A stretch of DNA of 28,893 bases from a virus (Duplodnaviria > Caudoviricetes), in IMG/VR virus record IMGVR_UViG_3300025103_000113, positions 1 through 28,893 of that record. One strand, 5' to 3'. Under the pieces are notes generated by a model. That model did no database searches. It was not told the DNA's origin and was given only the letters and a program-made list of their open reading frames with translations. Position 1 is the first letter of the stretch. Every line of letters begins with the position of its first letter. Positions 165-11,743 of the stretch are shown here, piece by piece. A program made the position numbers and the translations under genes.

Positions 165-937
165 AACTGTTAGTTATACCAGATACACAAGTACGACAAG
201 GGGTTCCCATAGACCACATCAAGGCAGCTGGCAATTACATTGTTAAGCATAAGCCACATCACATTGTAGTCATGGGGGACTGGTGGGACATGCCCTCCCT
301 TAGTCGCTTCAACACCAACCTAGAGGCTGAAGGACAGAAGCTTAAGGCTGACCTAGATGCTGGTGAAGAGGCTATGATGGCACTTATGCTTCCCATGATT
401 AAGGATAATGGTAAGCGTAGGTTGCACAAGAAGAAAATATACAGACCTAAGCTGACATACATTGTAGGCAACCATGACCCACAAGTGAGGCTACCTAGAC
501 TTATAGAGGAACACCCAATACTTGAGGGCTTCCTTGAAGATAAGACTAATAGGTTTCTTGAGGGACTGGGGTGGGAGGTGGTGGACTTCCTGAAGATAAA
601 GAACATAGAGGGCATACGCTTCTCTCACTACATACAAAATCCACATAGTGTAAAGGGAGCACCACTAGGAGGTCAGATAGATACTATGCTTAAGAATGCA
701 GGACATAGTTTTATCATGGGGCATAGCCAAACGTACAAGATGGGGAAACACTTCCTGTCTGATGGTACACAAAGGCTAGGCATTGTAGCTGGAGCCTTCT
801 ATGACCATGAGGAGCGTTATCAAGGCCCACAGGGGAACAAACATTGGAGAGGCATAGTGCAGCTTAATGATGTGAAGGATGGGAGCGCTGACGTTTGTGA
901 GCTGTCTCTGGACTACTTGAAGAAGAAGTATTTATGA
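161..937 (+). CDS. Calcineurin-like metallophosphoesterase
   Basis: Motifs in order: IPDTQ, GDWWD, GNHD, FSHY, MGHSQ. ATGA overlaps at both ends. Confidence 0.9.
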   Translation: MKLLVIPDTQVRQGVPIDHIKAAGNYIVKHKPHHIVVMGDWWDMPSLSRFNTNLEAEGQKLKADLDAGEEAMMALMLPMIKDNGKRRLHKKKIYRPKLTYIVGNHDPQVRLPRLIEEHPILEGFLEDKTNRFLEGLGWEVVDFLKIKNIEGIRFSHYIQNPHSVKGAPLGGQIDTMLKNAGHSFIMGHSQTYKMGKHFLSDGTQRLGIVAGAFYDHEERYQGPQGNKHWRGIVQLNDVKDGSADVCELSLDYLKKKYL

Positions 938-1233
938 CAACTAAGAATCATGAATCCTACTCCTACTCACTGAATTGGATGGGGCCGATAAATAAAAAGT
1001 GGTGCGAAGAGCATGGCAACCACTGGTGTGTAGGTAGGATAGATATAAGGGGAGTCCCTGATGAGCCTTGGGGACTAGAGTATGGTGTACCATGTATGCA
1101 TAAGGGAGACTGGGCAAACTTTGCTACTTTCCTCAGAGGCTTAAACAACGGTGACGTTCTCTACACTAAGCGAGAGTTGTTTGAGATGTTTGAAACACTA
1201 CACGGAAAAATAAGGTGGAAAGATGACTACTAA
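934..1233 (+). CDS. Hypothetical protein (99 aa, Trp/Cys-rich); first 7 aa identical to those of the downstream PhoH
   Basis: ORF overlaps both neighbours; starts MTTKNHES vs PhoH MTTKNHEL. Confidence 0.8.
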   Translation: MTTKNHESYSYSLNWMGPINKKWCEEHGNHWCVGRIDIRGVPDEPWGLEYGVPCMHKGDWANFATFLRGLNNGDVLYTKRELFEMFETLHGKIRWKDDY

Positions 1234-1858
1234 AAATCATGAACTATACGACTTAGCACTAAGAGACAAAGCACTTATGCCAGTGATAGCCTATGGCTCA
1301 GCTGGTGTAGGGAAAACTTATGGTGCTGTAGGAGCTGCCATTGAATGGCTAGCTAAGGGGAAGGGACAGAAGGTGATGGTGACAAGACCTAACGTATCCT
1401 TTGCTAAGGAGAGTGGCTTCCTGCCCGGTACTGAACGAGAGAAGATTGATCCTTGGGTGAGGCCCATACAGCAGAACTTTGCTGCTCATGGTGTAGATGA
1501 GAAGAAGCAGGAGACGCTTGAGAAGTATAAGAGACTGACATACATGCCTCTTGAATTCATACAAGGCCTCACCTTTGACAACACCTTCATCATTGTAGAT
1601 GAGTGTCAGAACATGAGCTTTCAACAACTGAAAGTATTCCTAACCCGTACAGGTAAGTGGTCTAAGGTGGTGTTGTGTGGAGATGTAGCTCAGATAAGTC
1701 CTAAGTTCAAGGGCAGTGGACTGTCTGAACTACTAGAGATGATTGACTACTGTAGGATGAATGTACACACCGTAGAGTTTGGTAAGGCTGACATACTACG
1801 TAGTGATCAATGTAAAGCTTGGATAGAAGCGTTTGAACAATGGGAGTTAGCAGCATGA
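1223..1858 (+). CDS. phoH: PhoH-like ATPase
   Basis: Walker A GSAGVGKT, TRP, GFLPG..EK..PW, IQGLTFDN, Walker B IIVDECQN, GD..Q and ILRS motifs; SD AAGGTGG. Confidence 0.95.
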   Translation: MTTKNHELYDLALRDKALMPVIAYGSAGVGKTYGAVGAAIEWLAKGKGQKVMVTRPNVSFAKESGFLPGTEREKIDPWVRPIQQNFAAHGVDEKKQETLEKYKRLTYMPLEFIQGLTFDNTFIIVDECQNMSFQQLKVFLTRTGKWSKVVLCGDVAQISPKFKGSGLSELLEMIDYCRMNVHTVEFGKADILRSDQCKAWIEAFEQWELAA

Positions 1859-1893
1859 TAGACTATGCGGAAATGTACTCGGAGGTCAAATGA
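1855..1893 (+). CDS. Possible 12-codon coupling mini-ORF (MIDYAEMYSEVK)
   Basis: ATGA overlap with the phoH stop at its start and with the ClpP-like ATG at its end; GGGAG upstream. Confidence 0.35.
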   Translation: MIDYAEMYSEVK

Positions 1894-2447
1894 GCCTATA
1901 TTATAAAGACTATGTAAGAGCCAACCCTATTGGCATAACCTACCACTTCTTCATTCATGGGGAGGTGGGAGACAGTGAGGACTATGTTGACTTACTAGAC
2001 ACACTCTACAGTGCTACAGCTAACGACATAATCATCCTCCACTTAAACACTCCAGGTGGCTACCTGAACACTGCCATAGAAATCATCCATGCTATAGCAC
2101 AGACAGAAGCTACTGTTGTAGGCAGTGCTGATGGGCTAGTGGCTAGTGCTGGCAGCCTCTTGTTCTTTGCATGTCACAACTTCCTACTAGGGGAATTCTG
2201 TGAGGTGATGTTACATGATGGAAGTGGTGGTGAGTTTGGTAAGATTAATGAGAACTTGAAGTCAGCAGAGTTTACATCTAAGCGACTCTCTCACATCTAC
2301 CACACCATCTATGGACGGTTCTTCTCACAAGAACAAGTGGACAATGTACTAGATGGTAAAGACCTCTACTTAACAGCAGGGGATGTAGAGAAACTTATTG
2401 AGGTAGCTTTAGAAGAAGCTGAAGGGGAAAAAGATGAAGAAGGTTAG
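1890..2447 (+). CDS. ClpP-like (S14) serine protease
   Basis: LHLNTPGG, GLVASAGS (catalytic Ser), VMLHD (His), KDLYLTA (Asp); SD GGAGG. Confidence 0.85.
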   Translation: MSLYYKDYVRANPIGITYHFFIHGEVGDSEDYVDLLDTLYSATANDIIILHLNTPGGYLNTAIEIIHAIAQTEATVVGSADGLVASAGSLLFFACHNFLLGEFCEVMLHDGSGGEFGKINENLKSAEFTSKRLSHIYHTIYGRFFSQEQVDNVLDGKDLYLTAGDVEKLIEVALEEAEGEKDEEG

Positions 2448-2658
2448 TGTATTGTTAGGAGGGGCTAGTTGTGGCCCCTGTAAGCGTGTTAAGAGCTTCT
2501 TAGACGGGAGGGGTGTAGAGTATACATACATTGACATAGGCACCACAGAGGGGAAGGACTTGGCTAAAGACTGGTGTGTTAGATCTATACCTAGTATGTC
2601 TGTAGGAGGGGTTGTCCTCACTGGTGATAGTAAGATTATGGAGATGTTTAGTGAATAG
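2434..2658 (+). CDS. Glutaredoxin/thioredoxin-like reductant
   Basis: CGPC motif, VEYTYIDI and cis-Pro RSIP; 74 aa; directly upstream of the RNR. Confidence 0.9.
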   Translation: MKKVSVLLGGASCGPCKRVKSFLDGRGVEYTYIDIGTTEGKDLAKDWCVRSIPSMSVGGVVLTGDSKIMEMFSE

Positions 2659-3616
2659 AAGTAATAAAATATTAAGTGACGTAACCATCTTCAACAAGTA
2701 TGCTAAGTATGTTGAGGAGAAAGGACGAAGAGAGACATGGGAAGAGTTGGTAACACGTAACAAGGAGATGCACCAACGCTCCTATCCACAGATAGCAGAC
2801 CAGATAGAAGAGGCTTATAAGTATGTCTATGCAAAGAAAGTATTGCCATCTATGCGATCCCTACAATTCGGAGGTAGGCCCATTGAAGTGGCCAACAACC
2901 GAATCTATAACTGTGCCTTCTTGCCAATCGACCACATTGATGGATTCAGTGAGCTTATGTTCCTCCTCCTTGGAGGTACTGGAGGAGGCTACTCTGTGCA
3001 AAAGATATGGGTTGATAAACTTCCAACAGTTAAAGGAACTCTTCCTGAAGCTCGAAGATTTCTCATTGGAGACAGCATTGAGGGGTGGGCAGACGCAATT
3101 AAAGTCTTGGTTGAAGCACACTTCCTTGGAAAGCAGGAGCCTGTATTTGACTATCGAGACATTAGAGAGAAAGGTGCGGCCCTTATTACTACTGGAGGAA
3201 AAGCTCCGGGGCCAGCTCCACTAAAACATTGCATTGAAACATTAAAAGGAAAACTAGATGAAGCTAAAGGAAGACAACTACGCCCTATTGAAGTCCACGA
3301 CATCTGTTGTATTATTGCTGACGCTGTGCTTGCTGGCGGCATACGCAGGGCTGCGCTCATCTCCCTCTTTGACCGAGAGGATGCTGAAATGCTCCGCTGC
3401 AAGTCAGGCAACTGGTGGGAAGATAGCCCCTATCGGGCAAGAGCAAACAACTCAGTGGTTCTGCCAAGGGGTGAGGTTGCAAAGGAAGAATTCTACGAAC
3501 TAATGAAAGTGGTGGAGGCTAGTGGTGCTGGTGAACCGGGCATCTACTGGACTTCCAATGAGGAGTGGGGGACTAACCCTTGCTGTGAAATAGGTCTTAG
3601 ACCGTTCCAGTTCTGT
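2651..3616 (+). CDS. nrdJ: Class II (adenosylcobalamin-dependent) ribonucleotide reductase, exon 1
   Basis: GTG start at 2651 (MNRSNKILSD), KYAKY..RRETWEE, PSMRSLQFGG, NCAF, GGIRRAALI, GEPG, TNPCCEI; ends QFC at the 5' splice site. Confidence 0.92.
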
Positions 3617-3856
3617 TAATAATTAGCAGAAGTAAAACATGGTGAATTGCTGGGAAGCCTAAGTGGAAACATAAGGTAATCAGCAGCCAAGCTTAGAGGG
3701 CAACCTCTTTGAAGGTTCAACGACTAGGGAATACGGACTCTTTGAGTACATGAATCCCGTACAGATCAAGTGATCTGGAAGCGCCATGCCCCCTCTGACA
3801 CAGGGGTGATGATATAGTCTGGTCTATATGGAAACATATAGGATTGATTCTTTTGT

Positions 3857-3899
3857 AAAATAATTACCGGAAAAACTCAATATTTCTAGTATATAGTAG
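3857..3899 (+). promoter_or_regulatory. Putative late promoter inside the intron, driving the endonuclease
   Basis: TTACCG (3864-3869), 17-bp spacer, TAGTAT (3887-3892); 43/43 identical to the reverse complement of 26187-26229. Confidence 0.75.
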
Positions 3900-3943
3900 A
3901 AAGAGTTCTGTAACAGAGCTTTAATACAAAACTAGGAGAGAGT

Positions 3944-4387
3944 ATGAAAACTACAAGAGAAGGTAATAAGTTTAACGAGACACACAGAGAATGTACTAAG
4001 TGTGGAGAGTGGTTCGAGAGGATTGGGAAGGACACCATGAGGATTTGCAAGTCTTGCAACACAGAGCGAGTCAAGTGTAAGTCTCCTGAGTCTAAGATGT
4101 TAGCAAGAGCTAAGGCGAGAGCCAAGTCCAGAGGTATTGAGTTTGACCTTAGCTTGGATGACATCTACATCCCAGAGCTATGCCCCATCATGAACTTAAA
4201 GTTAGAAGTTCACAAAGGCAAGCTACAAAAGAACTCCCCCTCCCTAGATAGAAGAGACCCTGCAAGGGGCTACGTCAAGGGGAATGTGTGGGTGGTTAGC
4301 TCACTAGCCAACTCGATTAAAGGCCAAGCAACTCCAGAAGAGCTGTCCACCTTTATAAACTATTACATATCAATCGGCACAGCCTAA
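3944..4387 (+). CDS. Intron-encoded homing endonuclease (N-terminal zinc finger plus His-Me/HNH-like 'SLDR.D..GY..GNV' domain)
   Basis: CTKC...CKSC, CPI, SPSLDRRDPARGYVKGNVWVVSSLANSIK; SD AGGAG; lies in a loop closed by GATTGAT (3842-3848)/ATCAATC (4369-4375). Confidence 0.88.
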   Translation: MKTTREGNKFNETHRECTKCGEWFERIGKDTMRICKSCNTERVKCKSPESKMLARAKARAKSRGIEFDLSLDDIYIPELCPIMNLKLEVHKGKLQKNSPSLDRRDPARGYVKGNVWVVSSLANSIKGQATPEELSTFINYYISIGTA

Positions 4388-4409
4388 CGAACTGTGTTTA
4401 ACATAAACG

Positions 4410-5294
4410 AATTTATGCGAGTTAAATGCAGATGATGTAGAAGATCAACATGACTTGAATGCTAGAGCTAAGGCTGCAAGCCTCATAGGGACGCTACAAG
4501 CAGGCTATACAGACTTCCACTACCTCCGTCCAATCTGGAAAGAAACTACGTCCAAAGAGGCACTCATTGGTGTAGGGATGACTGGCATCGGCTCTGGTGC
4601 TGTACTTAAACTTAACTTACGGGAGGCTGCTGATGAAGTGGTTGAAGAAAACAAGCGGGTGGCTGCTCTTATTGGTATCAACCCTGCTGCTCGTACCACT
4701 ACTGTTAAGCCAAGCGGTACTAGCAGCCTTGTTGTGGGCAGTAGCTCAGGTGTTCATGCTTGGCATAATAGTTATTACATTAGAAGAATGAGGGTGGGGA
4801 AAGATGAAGCACTATATAGTTACATGGTTAAGGAAATGCCGGAGCTGGTGGAGGATGACGTGTTCAATCCTAAGGGAGCGGTATTGTCTTTTCCTCAGGC
4901 TGCTCCGAGAGGTGCTATACTCCGTACGGAATCCCCAGAATCTCTCCTCGACAGAGTTAGGTTATTTAATCTTGATTGGGTTCGCCATGGGCATGTGTCT
5001 GGGGACAACACTCATAATGTTAGCTGCACTATTAGTCTAAAGGATGATGAATGGGGAGGCTGCATTGACTGGATGTGGAGCAATAGAAATGAATATAACG
5101 GAATTAGTGTCCTTCCTTACGATGGTGGCTCCTATGTCCAAGCACCATTTGAAGACATTACAGAAGCTAGATACTATGAACTGGAAAGTTCCCTCACTGC
5201 AATTGACCTGTCGAAGGTCACAGAAGAGGTTGATAACACAGACCTATCTGGAGAAGCGGCATGTGCTGGAGGAGCTTGTGAGATAAGCTTCTAA
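4410..5294 (+). CDS. nrdJ: Class II ribonucleotide reductase, exon 2 (spliced product 616 aa)
   Basis: Begins NLCELNADD; IGVGMTGI, TTTVKPSGT, HNVSCTI, C-terminal redox pair ACAGGACEI. Confidence 0.92.
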   Translation, partial: NLCELNADDVEDQHDLNARAKAASLIGTLQAGYTDFHYLRPIWKETTSKEALIGVGMTGIGSGAVLKLNLREAADEVVEENKRVAALIGINPAARTTTVKPSGTSSLVVGSSSGVHAWHNSYYIRRMRVGKDEALYSYMVKEMPELVEDDVFNPKGAVLSFPQAAPRGAILRTESPESLLDRVRLFNLDWVRHGHVSGDNTHNVSCTISLKDDEWGGCIDWMWSNRNEYNGISVLPYDGGSYVQAPFEDITEARYYELESSLTAIDLSKVTEEVDNTDLSGEAACAGGACEISF

Positions 5295-5661: not shown

Positions 5662-5978
5662 CTCCTACCCCTCTTAAACCAACTCTTAATTTCATTATAC
5701 ATCACCTGTGGAGCTGGTAGTAGCCAGCCCAATACTAACAACAACACTACCCAAGGGGGCATCTCCTCTACGTTAGTGGTGTTCACACCTCCTGTAATGC
5801 TCTCTGACACTACCTCAGACGTATCCCCCACCCTACCTACCACTGACTCTTCCTTGTCGCCTATGGTGGTGTCTACTTCTAAGCTAGGCCCACCCCCACT
5901 ATCAAACAACATCCCTGCTACATCAAGAGCTGAGCAAGACGCTAAGGTCAAGCTCAACAACAACACTAACACTTTCAT
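5658..5978 (-). CDS. Unimolecular spanin-like lipoprotein
   Basis: Signal peptide with lipobox LASC (Cys15, +2 Ser), C-terminal TM segment WVVLLLVLGWLLPAP, basic tail KRGRR; same architecture as T1 gp11. Confidence 0.75.
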   Translation of the reverse strand: MKVLVLLLSLTLASCSALDVAGMLFDSGGGPSLEVDTTIGDKEESVVGRVGDTSEVVSESITGGVNTTNVEEMPPWVVLLLVLGWLLPAPQVMYNEIKSWFKRGRR

Positions 5979-6175
5979 AAGTCCACCACTTGCAAGAAAG
6001 AAGCTAAGAAAGCCATCACTATCTCGTCCTCTTCTTCTATTTGTTTAAGGAGGCGTCTTCTCTTTCCAGACATTCCCCCACCACCAGCATACGGCTTCTC
6101 TACCTCTTCCTCCTCCGCAGGCCTATAGTAGCTTGAACTATAGTAGTTAGAAGAGTGGTAGTTACTGCCGTACAT
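5975..6175 (-). CDS. Small low-complexity protein (Tyr/Ser repeats, poly-Gly, acidic-hydrophobic C-terminus)
   Basis: ORF overlaps both neighbours; MYGSNYHSSNYYSSSYY...GGGG...EEEDEIVMAFL. Confidence 0.7.
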   Translation of the reverse strand: MYGSNYHSSNYYSSSYYRPAEEEEVEKPYAGGGGMSGKRRRLLKQIEEEDEIVMAFLASFLQVVDL

Positions 6176-6864
6176 TAACTCACATCCGTGATGATTGCTG
6201 TCCGTTGTCCGTTACTATCGACTGTAGCAGCTATCCTGTCCGTAGTGTCTGCTGCGTCTCTGAAGGTAACAGTGTTACCACTGACAGCCACCTTACCAGC
6301 AGCCTCTGCCCTAATTAGCTTAAGTTGCTGTTCAAAGGTTTCCCCATTTTCTATCACTTTAGCAAACAAGGCATCTACTATATTAGTTATATCTTGTGCT
6401 GTGAGGGTAGTGGCTCCAGAGCTTTCTATCGTAGCAGCATTAGTAGTTATTGTAAGAGACTCTTCGGCAGCTTCTACGTCAACATCTCTACCTATAGACG
6501 CTTGATTGGTTGTAATGGTCAGAGACTCTGTTGCCGCCTCTACTAGGGCACCTGCTGAAATACTGGCTGGGTATGTAGTTAATACCAGTTCTTCAGTAGT
6601 AGCTTGAGTGACCACGTTGCCTGGCACTGTCACTGCTGCTGGCCAGGTGACCATGTGCAGTGTTTCAGTTTTGGCAGGGACTTCGAGTAGTTCCGTCCCA
6701 TCAATTGTAGCTTGATGAGGGGTTAATGTAAGTAATTCTACCTCTGCTTGTCCTTCTAAGCTATCACTACTTAATACCTCTATAGTCTGACTATATTCTA
6801 ACGTCCTCCCGTCTGCAACAGTAAAATTAATTACTACTTCATGCGAGCCTGTAAGTAGTTTCAT
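6175..6864 (-). CDS. Putative fibre/appendage scaffold with five 22-24-aa repeats
   Basis: Repeats AxxExLxxxxxxAxI/V at aa 40, 64, 88, 110, 132; C-terminal AGKV..TVTFRDAADTTDRIAATVD..GQRT segment; late operon. Confidence 0.7.
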   Translation of the reverse strand: MKLLTGSHEVVINFTVADGRTLEYSQTIEVLSSDSLEGQAEVELLTLTPHQATIDGTELLEVPAKTETLHMVTWPAAVTVPGNVVTQATTEELVLTTYPASISAGALVEAATESLTITTNQASIGRDVDVEAAEESLTITTNAATIESSGATTLTAQDITNIVDALFAKVIENGETFEQQLKLIRAEAAGKVAVSGNTVTFRDAADTTDRIAATVDSNGQRTAIITDVS

Positions 6865-8183
6865 AAGGGCACCAATCCATCAATTTCTTCAAAATCTGCA
6901 TGAGGGTCAAGGTATAACAATCTGTCATGAGCAACCCCATCGCCATAATATGCGTCACCAAAACGTAACTCTCCTTTGGTGCTGTTATCTATCAGCTTCT
7001 GAGTAACTGAGCGAACCTGTTCAATGTTTGTTAATCGTTGGTAGCCTTGTAGCATACAAGCAATCACACCAGAGGTATGTGGGCCAGCAAAACTGGTACC
7101 GCTACCCACTCCATACTGACGTGGGGTTGAAAAGGGAGAGGCGCAAAGAACCTTCTGACCGGGTGCCCATATATCCACATTGGAGCCATACCCTGACATG
7201 AACATCAAGGAGGTACTTAAGAACATAGGGGTGTCGAAACATGATGTTGCGCCAACCACTATAATATCGGGGTGGGATTCGCAAGGGAGTACAAAATCTG
7301 TATCTAAATCCCATTTACTATTTGCAGCAGGTATGACAATAATTAACCCATCATCCATCATTGCTTCATAACCTGCGGCTGCTGCTGCTGAAGGTGTAAG
7401 ATCATTTCTTATCGTACCATAAGAGCAATTCAAAACAGCGGGGCGATTAGTGGCAGAGCGCGACATGTAATGATCGTATGCTACCTCAAACAGTCCGAGC
7501 CATGCCTCTTCTGAATGTGTTACATCGCCCTCAATCCCCGAAAAGAATAAATGGCTATCTCTAGCTATACCATTGTGCTGACCTACTGCACACGAGGTTA
7601 CCAATTGCCCATGTTTAATGTTTGAAAATCTATGGGTGAAAGTGGTATCGCCTACGTCTACATTCGATGCATCATTTGTGCCGCCACACCACTCAACCTC
7701 CCCTGTTTTCCATTCTACATGATCAGAATCAAAACCCGCGTCCAGTATATATACATCAACTCCCTCGCCTGTTCGCTGCGAACGGTAAGGCAATGTTCGG
7801 CGATGTGTCACAGCTACACCTTCTTGCCTAAAGGGGTTCTTCCGTCTCACAATACGATGCGGTGCCCAACTACTAAATGGGTCTGTTTCAGAGTTTTCAA
7901 TAAAACCATTTACGGTAGGGTCGTTACCAATAACTGTCGCATCTATTACATCAACCGCACCTTGTGGTTCCATCTTAAGGGGTGTCGCTACTTCGAGGCT
8001 CTCGATATCTGCATAATCCTCTAGAGTAAAAGTAGCCAAAGTACCATCTACATAAAATATACGTTTGAAGCGTATAACGTATACAAACTCATGCAGGTCT
8101 AGTAAGGCAGCAAAAGCATCATAGTCGGAACCTTTTCTTAGGACTATACCTAGTAGGTCTCTGGTTGCATGAGTGTTACTCAT
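6861..8183 (-). CDS. Subtilisin-family (S8, proteinase K-like) serine protease
   Basis: GEGVDVYILDAG (Asp), HGQLVTS (His), SGTSFAGPH (Ser), IPAAN (oxyanion Asn), VDIWAPG; N-terminal prodomain-sized region; no signal peptide. Confidence 0.92.
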   Translation of the reverse strand: MSNTHATRDLLGIVLRKGSDYDAFAALLDLHEFVYVIRFKRIFYVDGTLATFTLEDYADIESLEVATPLKMEPQGAVDVIDATVIGNDPTVNGFIENSETDPFSSWAPHRIVRRKNPFRQEGVAVTHRRTLPYRSQRTGEGVDVYILDAGFDSDHVEWKTGEVEWCGGTNDASNVDVGDTTFTHRFSNIKHGQLVTSCAVGQHNGIARDSHLFFSGIEGDVTHSEEAWLGLFEVAYDHYMSRSATNRPAVLNCSYGTIRNDLTPSAAAAAGYEAMMDDGLIIVIPAANSKWDLDTDFVLPCESHPDIIVVGATSCFDTPMFLSTSLMFMSGYGSNVDIWAPGQKVLCASPFSTPRQYGVGSGTSFAGPHTSGVIACMLQGYQRLTNIEQVRSVTQKLIDNSTKGELRFGDAYYGDGVAHDRLLYLDPHADFEEIDGLVPL

Positions 8184-8722
8184 ACTGTCTTCTCCAGTGT
8201 TCTTATGCTGAGATGACTTGTTCCGTTTAGGATACTACCGATATCTGAACAATGTATTTGTATTATGTCTCCTGCTACTACATCAAATTCAGGAGAGATA
8301 ATCTGAGAGTGAGTACCGACACAGTCAACCTTAGCTTCTGGGGAAGCTGTATCTGAATTTTTAACCACCATTAGTGTGGGGCCAGCAACTGTTGAGGTTA
8401 TCTGAGCCACTACTTGCACTTTTGTAACGTTCGAAGGTATTGTTAATATCCCAGGTGCTGTATAGAACCCATTATCCCTAACTATTTTATCAAAAGGAAC
8501 TACCCCTCCATCATGAGGCTGAGAAGCAATGTTAATCCTCAGAAGTGCGCCATGTGCTGCATCAGTTTGCCATTGGGGAAAAGTTATTCCATTAACGTGG
8601 GCTGCTAGTTCCAGTAAAGTATACGCTGCCGGGTTCCCATCTGCCTTCTCTACTACGATCAGGTCTGTATCTGCTGGTATAGCTCCTGAGTTATCTGTTT
8701 GTATTTGACTAAAAGTTGACAT
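8180..8722 (-). CDS. Short fibre/adhesin-like protein with a C1q/TNF-like C-terminal domain
   Basis: N-terminal fibre-docking-like motif (FSQI...PADTDLIVVEK...YTLLEL); VVPFDKIVRDNGF...LTIP...VQVVAQI...AGDIIQI pattern. Confidence 0.55.
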   Translation of the reverse strand: MSTFSQIQTDNSGAIPADTDLIVVEKADGNPAAYTLLELAAHVNGITFPQWQTDAAHGALLRINIASQPHDGGVVPFDKIVRDNGFYTAPGILTIPSNVTKVQVVAQITSTVAGPTLMVVKNSDTASPEAKVDCVGTHSQIISPEFDVVAGDIIQIHCSDIGSILNGTSHLSIRTLEKTV

Positions 8723-8723
8723 T

Positions 8724-10004
8724 CTATCTTACCTCTATGAGTGTTGTACCAGCGTACAAGGTCTGGTGGCCATCTAATTCTTCCATGCTATTTATTAACA
8801 GTGGTATTTGTTCTAATGTACCTGTGAAGAGTGTGCCGTCTAAGGCAACTACCATAGGTAACCCATCAACTGTAATAGTCATCTCTTGGATGTTAGGTAA
8901 CCCTTCACCTGTAACCGTGAAATCCTCCCCATTATTATCATATGCAAAGTTAACTATCTGGAGAATTCTGTCCCATACTGTGAGCGGGGTTAAAGTGGTC
9001 GTACTTAAGGCTGTACCTAACTCTATATTGACTTCATTTCTTAGCTCAGAAACGAAAGTTAGAGAGTGATTGTAAATTACAAAGTAAGTTACGCCATTAT
9101 GATCAAGCTCCTTATTAACTGGTTCTACACCAACTGTGTAAGTTTCATTTGGTATAAGTCCTGTTAAATTGTACGTACCGCTAGTTATATTATTGTAGAA
9201 AGTTGTATCTCCACCCTCGTGGACTACCTTGAGGTTATACGCGGTTAAACTTGCGAGGAACGCTTGTATCGATCCGGGGGCAGGTGCAAGGGGTATTAAA
9301 CCTAAATCCACAGTAACTGTTGTAGGTGTATAAGCAACTACTGCATTGTATGTAGGTGTGAGGTTTAAACTACCTAAGTTAATTTGGACAGGCTCGACCA
9401 GCGATACAGCCAATTCATTCAAAATGACGTTAGGTGTGATACTGCCTAAATCAACCCAAGGTAGTGCGTCAGATGCAAATGCAAGGACTGCGGAATACAC
9501 TTGTGGGTATTCAACTGTACCCGATCTATCTGTGGGTCGTACACTTACTTCATAATTGTCGTTTTGGATAAGACCTGTAAGGTTATAGCTATTAGTTACA
9601 ATACCATCTATATATGAAATTGTACCTTCAATGTGATTAACTCTCAGGGTATAGGTAGGCCCAGTAAAAATCACAACGGGGGTAGTAGCTTCCAAAGTAA
9701 GAGTAGGTGTTACAGTACCTAAGAATATTGTAGGTGTATTGCTCAACTCAACAGGGTTCAGCGAGGAACTATGAGTGATCGCAGCTAGGTTTATACTTAC
9801 AGGTTGAGCCGAAGATGTAAACGTTACCTCGTCATAAGAGGAGTAATAAATGACACCACTCTGATCATCTACACTTTGAACCCTTACCTCGTAGTTTGCA
9901 TCAAGTGTTAAACCTGTAAGTGCGGCACTGGTCGAGGCAGTATTTGTTACTGCCCCATGTGCATCACCTACGATATTGTAACTGTAATTATAAGTGATTG
10001 CCAT
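8724..10004 (-). CDS. Fibre-associated protein with three partial FN3 domains, six beta-rich repeats and a C-terminal Ig/IPT-like domain
   Basis: LTGLTLDANYEVRV, LTGLIQNDNYEVSV, LTGLIPNETYTVGV; SD GGAG 7 nt before the ATG. Confidence 0.75.
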   Translation of the reverse strand: MAITYNYSYNIVGDAHGAVTNTASTSAALTGLTLDANYEVRVQSVDDQSGVIYYSSYDEVTFTSSAQPVSINLAAITHSSSLNPVELSNTPTIFLGTVTPTLTLEATTPVVIFTGPTYTLRVNHIEGTISYIDGIVTNSYNLTGLIQNDNYEVSVRPTDRSGTVEYPQVYSAVLAFASDALPWVDLGSITPNVILNELAVSLVEPVQINLGSLNLTPTYNAVVAYTPTTVTVDLGLIPLAPAPGSIQAFLASLTAYNLKVVHEGGDTTFYNNITSGTYNLTGLIPNETYTVGVEPVNKELDHNGVTYFVIYNHSLTFVSELRNEVNIELGTALSTTTLTPLTVWDRILQIVNFAYDNNGEDFTVTGEGLPNIQEMTITVDGLPMVVALDGTLFTGTLEQIPLLINSMEELDGHQTLYAGTTLIEVR

Positions 10005-10007
10005 AGT

Positions 10008-10757
10008 TTAGCTCCAGCTTATAGTTGCCGTAGTTCCAGTTAAATCCGTTGCTTGTACAGTAGGTGTTGAAAGTACTAAAGCTTCGTCAGGCCAAGGCGC
10101 AGGATCACCATCTGTCCCTATTGCTATAAAATTAAAAGCGGAAGCATCGGTGGCTGCGTTCCCAAAAGAAGCAGGCCCAGTAATAGAGTACGGTGTTCCG
10201 GGTGTTACCTGAGTGCTACCTTCTACATTCCAATCACTACTCTCTGACGCTTCTAGGGTATTGCTATACCAAACACGTAATTTATAAGAAGCATCAGTTG
10301 CATTTAACTGTAAACGAAAACCCACGCCTAAAGAACTAAAAATCGGACTAGGGGTTACGTTTTTAGTGGTAGTCACGCCAGCTGTGACCATTTCATAGTT
10401 GTTAGTAGTAGTCCCCTCAGCTAGTATACTTTTGAAGTTACTTTGAAGTGAATTGCCTATATCTGTTGAAGTTTGCGCAAGAAAAATCTTGTGCCCGTGA
10501 GCCTCGATAGTAGCCCCGGAAGTAGCCTTGTAGTTGTTAGCTGCTGACGTTTTACCGATAAGTATTTCGCAGTCTGAGTATGTGGCGTTACCCGACATAA
10601 ATGTACCCATCATTACAGTCAGTGACCTCCAATAAGGGGGATGACTTCCAGTTTGTACAACTTCGTAGTCACTGCCATTGGAATCAGACCACCAACCGAG
10701 ATCACTCATTCGCGTCCCTACTGGGTACTTTCTTGCATCAAAAACATATTGAGCCAT
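10008..10757 (-). CDS. Beta-rich putative receptor-binding/lectin-like protein (249 aa) ending in FN3 strands A-B
   Basis: Likely start MAQYVFD at 10757 (SD AAGGGG); C-terminus LSTPTVQATDLTGTTATISWS*. Confidence 0.65.
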   Translation of the reverse strand: MAQYVFDARKYPVGTRMSDLGWWSDSNGSDYEVVQTGSHPPYWRSLTVMMGTFMSGNATYSDCEILIGKTSAANNYKATSGATIEAHGHKIFLAQTSTDIGNSLQSNFKSILAEGTTTNNYEMVTAGVTTTKNVTPSPIFSSLGVGFRLQLNATDASYKLRVWYSNTLEASESSDWNVEGSTQVTPGTPYSITGPASFGNAATDASAFNFIAIGTDGDPAPWPDEALVLSTPTVQATDLTGTTATISWS

Positions 10758-10767
10758 AACATTCCCC

Positions 10768-11241
10768 TTACTGTGAAGACAGGCCGCCAGCTGCTGGACG
10801 CGCCTCGAGGTTTTCACCGTTTGTGGTGGCTACGAAGTCATACGCATAAATGGGAATAATATTGGTATCATCCCCACCAGTTGTATCGTCATCATAACAA
10901 ACCAGCAACTTAGTAAGAGAGTTATTAGATGCCCCACCTGCTGCTGTCCATATTTGGTCTGGTATATCTATCACTAATGTATCAGCACCATTATCAACCG
11001 TAACGGTCATCCCATCAGAGTCCGTAAGTTCCTTACGTGCGTAGTTTGTGAAAGTAGCTTCAGTGTTTCCTGCCTCTGCTAGTAACAATGATAGGTTTGC
11101 ATAGTCTCGGAGTGTTCCGTCTAATTCTGACGCTTGAAGGATTACGAGAGTAATTGCAGAGTTTGCAGGAGTGTTAGCGTTTACATTTGAAAAGAAGGTT
11201 TTGTCTTGACCTTTCGCTACATTAAAAATTAAGTCAGCCAT
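10768..11241 (-). CDS. Small virion fibre/filament subunit-like protein (157 aa)
   Basis: SD AAGGA; pattern TEATFTNYARKEL...DQIWTAAG...LLVCYD...IYAYDF...NGENL parallels the adjacent 147-aa protein. Confidence 0.65.
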   Translation of the reverse strand: MADLIFNVAKGQDKTFFSNVNANTPANSAITLVILQASELDGTLRDYANLSLLLAEAGNTEATFTNYARKELTDSDGMTVTVDNGADTLVIDIPDQIWTAAGGASNNSLTKLLVCYDDDTTGGDDTNIIPIYAYDFVATTNGENLEARPAAGGLSSQ

Positions 11242-11299
11242 GTGGGGTTTCCTTTATGTATGGTATTAAATTGGGTTTAAATAATTACTTTAAATTAGG

Positions 11300-11743
11300 T
11301 TATGGAGCAGTCAGTGTAGTAATACCTGTAGCATTCCATGTGATAGTCAATGAACCAGCAGACATATCTATCGGGCCTCCTAGCTCTACAAAAGCGATAG
11401 CTGGAGAGCCTGCTTGAGTAGCGTTGTATATGAGTCCCCAATGAGCATCTGTATCGTTGCTTGCATCTTGAGCCCATGTTGGATTGGTTGCTGAGTCCAT
11501 AGTCCCTGTACCAGCATTCTCACTCCAGACTGTTGTCCAATTACCTAGTGATGTTCCCCCTGCTGTGTATGTACCAGCTGCCCCCACTTCTGTAAAATCA
11601 CCAAGAGCTGGGGTGGCTGTTGCTGCTGTTGGGGCTGTCGTGTTATCTAACACTGCCACTTTAATATCATCTGTTGTAGCCCAACCTGCAAAGTAATCTA
11701 ATGCTCGTGCTTCGTTGAACCAAGTGATGTCGCCTGCTGCCAT
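11300..11743 (-). CDS. Small virion fibre/filament subunit-like protein (147 aa)
   Basis: SD AGGA; DDIKVAVL...TEVG..GTYTAGGTSL...PTWAQ...GLIYN...IAFVELG...LTITWNATGI, Ala/Thr/Gly-rich. Confidence 0.7.
   Translation of the reverse strand: MAAGDITWFNEARALDYFAGWATTDDIKVAVLDNTTAPTAATATPALGDFTEVGAAGTYTAGGTSLGNWTTVWSENAGTGTMDSATNPTWAQDASNDTDAHWGLIYNATQAGSPAIAFVELGGPIDMSAGSLTITWNATGITTLTAP

Follow-up and report, generated by a model that had tools for sequence, protein, structure and literature searches.

In chaperone-usher pili, an N-terminal strand completes an Ig fold as strand G, and assembly with a chaperone and an usher yields a linear polymer. In the baseplate of the Lactococcus siphophage Tuc2009, a hairpin formed by residues 296-321 of BppU completes a beta-sheet of BppA domain 2, giving a titin-like composite (PMC4742702). 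This joint, made of a C-terminal hairpin of approximately 25 residues and a 57-residue sandwich, attaches a carbohydrate-binding module (PDB 5E7T; PMC4742702). BppA raises host affinity and is non-essential (PMC9692632). Chain-like fibers are known from podophages: in GP4, gp80 dimers are carried on a rope protein, in A1002, gp40 and gp41 are carried on the nozzle-rope protein gp39, and VP1 is another such phage (PMC13730344). Fibers of the GP4/A1002 type assemble by beta-augmentation. In A1002, moreover, the nozzle is split and completed in trans, and the rope includes an Ig-like domain (PMC13730344). The bead-chain neck fiber of Anabaena phage A-1(L) is encoded by several genes (gp82-gp81-gp80), carries a distal carbohydrate-binding module, and, as modeled by the authors, is joined through terminal beta-hairpins (PMC10966104).

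Here, we analyzed a 28,893-nucleotide (nt) stretch of viral DNA (IMG/VR record IMGVR_UViG_3300025103_000113), referred to as the window. Gene A (minus strand, 10008..10757; delimited by its ORF and homologues) encodes a 249-aa protein with a head and a C-terminal plug corresponding to FN3 strands A-B. Gene B (minus strand, 8724..10004) encodes a 426-aa rope-like scaffold that contains three headless FN3 halves along with spacer repeats, a C-terminal Ig-like domain, and an EELDG motif. As in chaperone-usher pili, an incomplete beta-sandwich would be completed in trans; unlike there, the FN3 fold would be completed by two C-terminal strands (the A-B hairpin), and the 18 window proteins scanned included no member of a chaperone or usher family. 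As in Tuc2009, a C-terminal two-strand hairpin is located on a separate protein, and a five-strand socket is superposable on BppA domain 2. In contrast to Tuc2009, the polarity is reversed, the lectin-like head bearing the plug and the scaffold the sockets; there are 2 to 4 sockets per chain, at N-terminal and internal positions, whereas BppA has one C-terminal socket; and the setting is a podovirus accessory cassette instead of a siphophage baseplate. The A/B joint would work like that of BppU and BppA without sequence relation and is no member of that system. The A-1(L) fiber is likewise a multi-gene fiber with hairpin-based joints, but its trimeric beads polymerize head to tail, and the available part of the report mentions neither a split FN3 fold nor side sockets (PMC10966104).

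The sequence-only reading had not recognized a plug-and-socket display system of this kind as described in phages. The joint itself is known: a hairpin completing a titin/FN3-like domain has been solved in Tuc2009 (PMC4742702), and half 2 of gene B superposes on that domain. New here are the 2 to 4 sockets per chain and the plug on the head, and the new element, multivalence, is likely. No multi-socket split-FN3 phage fiber was found in the literature searched (titles and abstract openings, few subscription journals, no supplements). In tblastn searches, A and B had no match among 50,697 phage records; P0045 likewise had no match in cultured phages, and P0085 matched solely through its Ig domain.

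The FN3 domain was read as split over two genes, and this holds in every homologue found, always at the same point. The fold is divided between strands B and C across the A/B gene boundary, and no single chain holds all seven FN3 strands together with the strand-B Trp, strands A-B being on gene A. The A protein ends with ...TGTTATISWS*, and gene B starts in frame with A in the window, after TAA-ACT (junction TGG AGC TAA ACT ATG; minus strand, 10002..10016). Gene B indeed has its own SD, a GGAG (10012-10015) 7 nt 5' of the ATG, which overlaps the Trp-Ser codons of A. All seven A homologues end at the same point with W[S/G]-stop, and all seven B homologues start at the same point with MA[I/T]. 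With one near-identical strain left aside for each gene, the A and B homologues show 37 to 53% identity (37 to 46% for A and 38 to 51% for B). Because all homologues of A begin with MA[QK]Y, an upstream GTG is not the start of A. Among the homologues, agreement in the length of the longest contig suggests that four A/B pairs are each located on one contig.

The in-frame layout is also what a sequencing error in a single fused gene, or a nonsense mutation that arose in it recently, would produce; nothing else speaks for this explanation. The TAA at 10008-10010 is bridged unchanged in contigs, as opposed to raw reads, of three of the four runs (X3 [matching the possible source in year and habitat], X9 [2022], and X11 [2023]; the fourth, X17, has no junction coverage), and it is also kept in the related loci L004 and L005, where the junction is in frame as in the window. 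Thus, no sense codon was found at this position in the contigs of three runs, and the homologues are split alike. Moreover, the same split is seen at 26 to 48% identity of A, and a weak search among 7,991 longer candidates revealed no fused A+B protein or longer form of A. With the stop codon in three runs and the split conserved, we reject this explanation, the probability of which is close to nil.

Programmed readthrough or frameshifting that fuses A and B is suggested by the TAA-ACT-ATG arrangement of this lineage, and phage proteins are known to gain Ig-like domains by recoding. In the four lineages in which junction DNA was seen, the arrangement differs. L001 has TAG plus 4 nt and the +1 frame, L006 has TAA plus 4 nt and the +1 frame, and L012, a distant phage, has a TAATG overlap and the -1 frame. 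These three frame relations, together with two different stop codons, exclude a single conserved readthrough or frameshift: L001 and L006 would need a +1 event and L012 a -1 event after the stop codon. In addition, B has its own SD and a Met-Ala start that is near-invariant in its family, and fusion would leave halves 2 and 3 unexplained. We consider recoding highly improbable and reject the readthrough raised earlier as an alternative. The in-frame layout is a peculiarity of this lineage that is not conserved, and the A/B split is old and frame-independent. We also rejected the idea that the strand-B Trp is kept merely as a part of the SD; in L012, the Trp codon is located further upstream and is still kept.

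The head of A (aa 1-219; minus strand, 10101..10757) was modeled as a ConA/galectin/LamG-like beta-sandwich with a pLDDT of 54. Its best VIA match was a legume-lectin-like domain (Z 7.3, rmsd 4.3, 159 aligned), the list consisted mostly of lectins and sugar-binding sandwiches, and Foldseek gave no match at E<=0.001. These comparisons weakly suggest a lectin fold, and from this fold the head is a putative sugar-binding domain. The plug (aa 228-249; minus strand, 10011..10076), recognized by its model and conservation, corresponds to FN3 strands A-B with the strand-B Trp and was modeled as a hairpin apart from the head (E234-240/E243-248). The strand-B Trp is invariant (9/9), and the mean pairwise identity of the plug is 72% (7 sequences) versus 36% in the middle of the head. 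Together with the constant split point, this conservation speaks against a chance arrangement. The Pfam fn3 profile did not match gene A. The proteins P0012 and P0013 have identical 24-residue plugs and clearly different heads, reflecting either strong constraint or recent exchange.

Gene B carries three C-G halves, the internal two without an upstream Trp strand, as had been proposed. Socket 1 (aa 3-63; 9816..9998) is followed by a first block of spacer repeats (9669..9809; approximately 20 aa each, consensus VxVxLGxIxxSxTLNxV), socket 2 (aa 116-177; 9474..9659), a second repeat block (9261..9458), and socket 3 (aa 254-318; 9051..9245), all on the minus strand. Pfam fn3 (PF00041) matched B with 39.4 bits (cut-off 25) in three stretches (E 7e-10), and the best stretch, in socket 3, covers profile positions 29-72 of 84. 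The 22 residues that precede strand C contain no Trp in either half 2 or half 3. As a monomer, B gave a poor model (pLDDT 42), and ESM Atlas gave no useful match. Repeats at the DNA level in this region look like chance matches.

We then considered whether the internal halves are divergent complete FN3 domains in which the spacer repeat before each half supplies strands A-B. These repeats have a propensity for beta-structure and stand directly before halves 2 and 3 in the window. A profile search gave 332 matches, of which 150 were listed and 23 were fetched. Proteins beginning with a C-G half were assigned by eye to the family, which, including the homologues found before, comprises 26 proteins; the remaining 129 of the list were used as control. 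With some last halves below the score threshold, a Trp at most 22 residues before strand C was counted in 2 of 41 internal family halves versus 560 of 588 control halves, and one of the two exceptions is the G-strand Trp of the preceding half. The Trp is therefore missing in 39/41 internal halves. In P0149, two halves are joined by few residues, and in P0085, P0037, P0101, P0084, and the L012 protein, half 2 follows approximately 6 residues after a complete Ig domain (PF16403, confirmed at full length, 1-71/71, in P0085, P0037, and P0084). Such relatives without a repeat before half 2 show that the repeats are no general source of strands A-B. Furthermore, the repeats were disordered in the low-depth AlphaFold model of B (pLDDT of approximately 20 to 25, with approximately 50 to 66 in the adjoining halves and halves 2 and 3 partly ordered), and similar repeats occur in a 263-aa protein of L012 that has no FN3 halves. 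Of the 12 family proteins that Pfam fn3 matched, 3 do have a best alignment that extends upstream into the segment before the half, as far as profile positions 11-19. Overall, completion of halves 2 and 3 by their own repeats, the outcome that was to count against the plug model, is very unlikely. By sequence, B and its relatives carry 2 to 4 C-G halves without strands A-B.

The internal halves resemble the N-terminal ones at their core positions, with a median of 31.6 bits for 44 internal halves and 34.6 bits for 26 N-terminal halves; in both groups, strands C, E, F, and G keep their hydrophobic core positions. P0007 lacks half 2, and P0021 and P0053 have, by eye, four halves. Halves thus appear, from these comparisons, to be gained or lost as units.

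Half 2 (model residues 116-182) was superposed on BppA domain 2 (5e7t_B 229-286) with Z 6.7, rmsd 2.7, 58 aligned residues, and 19% identity. This domain was rank 15 among the FN3 matches of half 2; the model is of low confidence, half 2 can be superposed on FN3 domains as well, and comparable scores are obtained with intact FN3 domains. 5E7T was absent from the best 60 of 165 profile matches.

For co-folding, B 66-325 (halves 2 and 3 with their own repeats, half 1 omitted) was combined with two copies of A 218-249. The ipSAE was 0.46 (0.48, 0.43, and 0.46), whereas the best of three controls gave 0.00, which was rated as weak support. Among solved complexes, 116 of 157 attained the mark, compared with 2 of 215 mismatches; at ipSAE <=0.60, just 18 of the 157 solved complexes and both mismatches did so. 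The runs agreed in at least 71% of contacts, and the partner pLDDT was at least 57. The co-fold gave no interface and does not distinguish whether one or both halves were filled, and the pass may reflect memory of, or likeness to, intact FN3 domains. Of the earlier claim that the plug docks into three sockets, the A-B plug and the headless halves stand, and docking into halves 2 and 3 is weakly supported by the co-fold.

These results bear on a rival with a single joint, in which the plug completes socket 1 and A:B is 1:1. Halves 2 and 3 would then be stable five-strand domains or be completed otherwise, by an unseen plug protein, by an arm of a bead protein, or by half-half pairing in a B oligomer. 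Counting against several sockets, the mean pairwise identity is higher in half 1 (54%) than in half 2 (41%) and half 3 (37%), as expected if half 1 alone binds the plug. The weakness of the co-fold and the incomplete genome point the same way, as does the solved precedent, which is 1:1 per chain (PMC4742702). On the other hand, the core pattern also persists in halves 2 and 3, halves are apparently added and lost as units (P0007, P0021, and P0053), and the plug scored with halves 2 and 3 in the absence of half 1, unrelated peptides giving 0.00. Moreover, a search in all six frames of the window, L001, L006, L007, and L012 revealed no second plug gene; just 28.9 kb of the genome is available, so another plug gene may exist elsewhere. 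We regard the single joint as possible but rather unlikely. Completion of socket 1 by the plug, after the pattern of the BppU hairpin in BppA domain 2, is very probable, and the case for it is strong. That the plug also fills sockets 2 and 3, with the socket number setting the valency, is moderately supported and somewhat probable, and we infer a 3:1 head:scaffold stoichiometry.

A wider form of the sequence-only reading, in which the plug serves interchangeable, unrelated heads, was not supported: gene B led to three distinct related loci (L001, L006, and L012), each of which has a homologous head upstream and no second plug gene. No plug on an unrelated head was found in six frames of the window, L001, L006, L007, L010, L011, and L012, nor in 110 further loci, and the suggested phage search for unrelated domains with the same A-B tail, covering the window and the loci scanned, thus found none. 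The tail profile was insensitive, matching 14 of 129 ordinary FN3 proteins, and its blank result on 26/26 family proteins is weak.

Upstream of A are two genes for candidate fiber beads, one encoding a 157-aa protein (phrog_26662; minus strand, 10768..11241), which adjoins A in L001, L006, and L012, and one encoding a 147-aa protein (phrog_644; minus strand, 11300..11743), which is also found in L001. As in the GP4 and A1002 fibers, two proteins of approximately 150 aa are thus encoded next to an extended protein that contains many short repeats; unlike in the window, no FN3 sockets or plug-bearing heads are described for those fibers in the available part of the report (PMC13730344). The number of spacer repeats varies among B homologues. 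A resemblance of the bead candidates to Gp80 is a lead only: Atlas gave 0.87 with 173 shared features, with Gp80 on 23% of that cluster, and Pfam Gp80 (PF23140) matched 1 of 23 members at E 0.038. Comparison with GP4 gp80 by hhalign was negative, the PHROGs differ, and the spacer repeat profile did not match the 325-aa repeat gene beside GP4 gp80. By analogy, B might act as a rope whose repeats bind the 147- and 157-aa proteins by beta-sheet augmentation, a weaker proposal that we see as evenly balanced.

The cassette spans approximately 6 kb in the order 147 aa, 157 aa, A, B, 180 aa, S8 protease, 229 aa, and 66 aa. The 180-aa protein (minus strand, 8180..8722) follows B in L001, L006, and L012 and has no Pfam match; by eye, we take its pattern to be C1q-like, with no library match. 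The end of B (minus strand, 8727..8972) consists of a five-strand Ig-like domain and a conserved EELDG tail. By eye, this tail (8727-8801, minus strand) resembles the N terminus of the 180-aa protein (8640-8722, minus strand), for which it may be a docking site. A subtilase (S8) protease gene (minus strand, 6861..8183; Pfam PF00082, E 5e-19) is located at the same place in L001, L006, and L012, and hence the protease lies inside the fiber cassette in all four lineages, as a displayed enzyme or as a maturation protease. The 229-aa protein (minus strand, 6175..6864) is a second repeat-rich protein with counterparts in L001, L006, and L012. Its conserved two-strand start (6775-6864, minus strand), present in the same three loci, was noted alongside the five-strand Ig-like domain of B (8805-8972, minus strand); the Ig body and this N-terminal hairpin are possibly a second split domain, of which no intact homologue was found. 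The 66-aa gene (5975-6175, minus strand) has a Tyr/Ser-rich start and an acidic-hydrophobic end and is nearly identical in L001. The split cassette is rare: among 110 loci with the 157-aa gene family, it was present in two, both re-finds of L001 and L012, and scans with other subfamilies revealed no locus.

Genes for portal, capsid, nozzle, and internal-virion proteins are present in the window. PA11, CVT22, CW02, SIO1, and ICP2 are among its closest cultured relatives; identity to the group that includes them is at most 74% for the capsid and at most 43% for the nozzle protein, and the portal-capsid-nozzle-internal protein module is homologous to and syntenic with that of PA11 (recorded as Zobellviridae). 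By these similarities, the phage would be a Zobellviridae-like marine podovirus. Most runs containing window DNA are labeled marine or seawater, and no RNA run was among those listed. At the place of the cassette, between the endolysin and ribonucleotide reductase genes, PA11 has only three short genes. Thus, the whole cassette (5975-11743) is absent at the syntenic place in PA11 and present in L012, a phage of different gene order, which suggests that it may have moved horizontally. Before the cassette, L012 encodes a 541-aa protein (321-1946, plus strand) with a predicted-looking N-terminal hydrophobic stretch and a 934-aa protein (1934-4738, plus strand) with several tandem Ig-like repeats. 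In the window, a group I intron (Rfam RF00028, 93 bits; 3607-3841, plus strand) interrupts the ribonucleotide reductase gene (2612-3619, 4455-5294) and is followed by an HNH-like ORF recognized by eye (3944-4387); the L001 gene is uninterrupted (626 aa). PhoH-like ATPase and ClpP-like protease ORFs were also recognized by eye (1223-1858 and 1890-2447, plus strand), and the PhoH-like ORF shares its first seven residues with a 99-aa ORF at position 934.

The explanation that we favor, and hold to be on balance probable as a whole, comprises separate A and B proteins, plug insertion into sockets, and B as rope. A and B would be translated separately as two virion proteins of an accessory fiber cassette. 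The C-terminal hairpin of A would insert as strands A-B, with its Trp in the core, and complete socket 1; the same plug would fill sockets 2 and 3, so that as many as three lectin-fold heads could be displayed on one B chain. A likely role of the assembly, guessed from the predicted fold, is multivalent binding to glycans of the host or of particles. In its widest form, which may equally prove right or wrong, this is a mobile cassette for a branched multivalent adhesin with 2 to 4 sockets, each holding a separate lectin-fold head via a 22-residue hairpin, with the valency changed by socket duplication or deletion, movement between unrelated phage backbones, and possibly further split-domain joints.

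If the proposal is true, the case is a caution for annotation that "truncated" FN3 matches in phage genes can be functional. Plug and socket would then be a natural tag/catcher pair of 22 and approximately 62 residues that occurs in natural tandem arrays, with possible use in protein display, and the single Tuc2009 joint would be extended to a design with one plug and many sockets. The phage would set the avidity of host binding by adding or dropping a 60-residue socket, apart from specificity, which would change with the head, a part that diverges about twice as fast as the plug.
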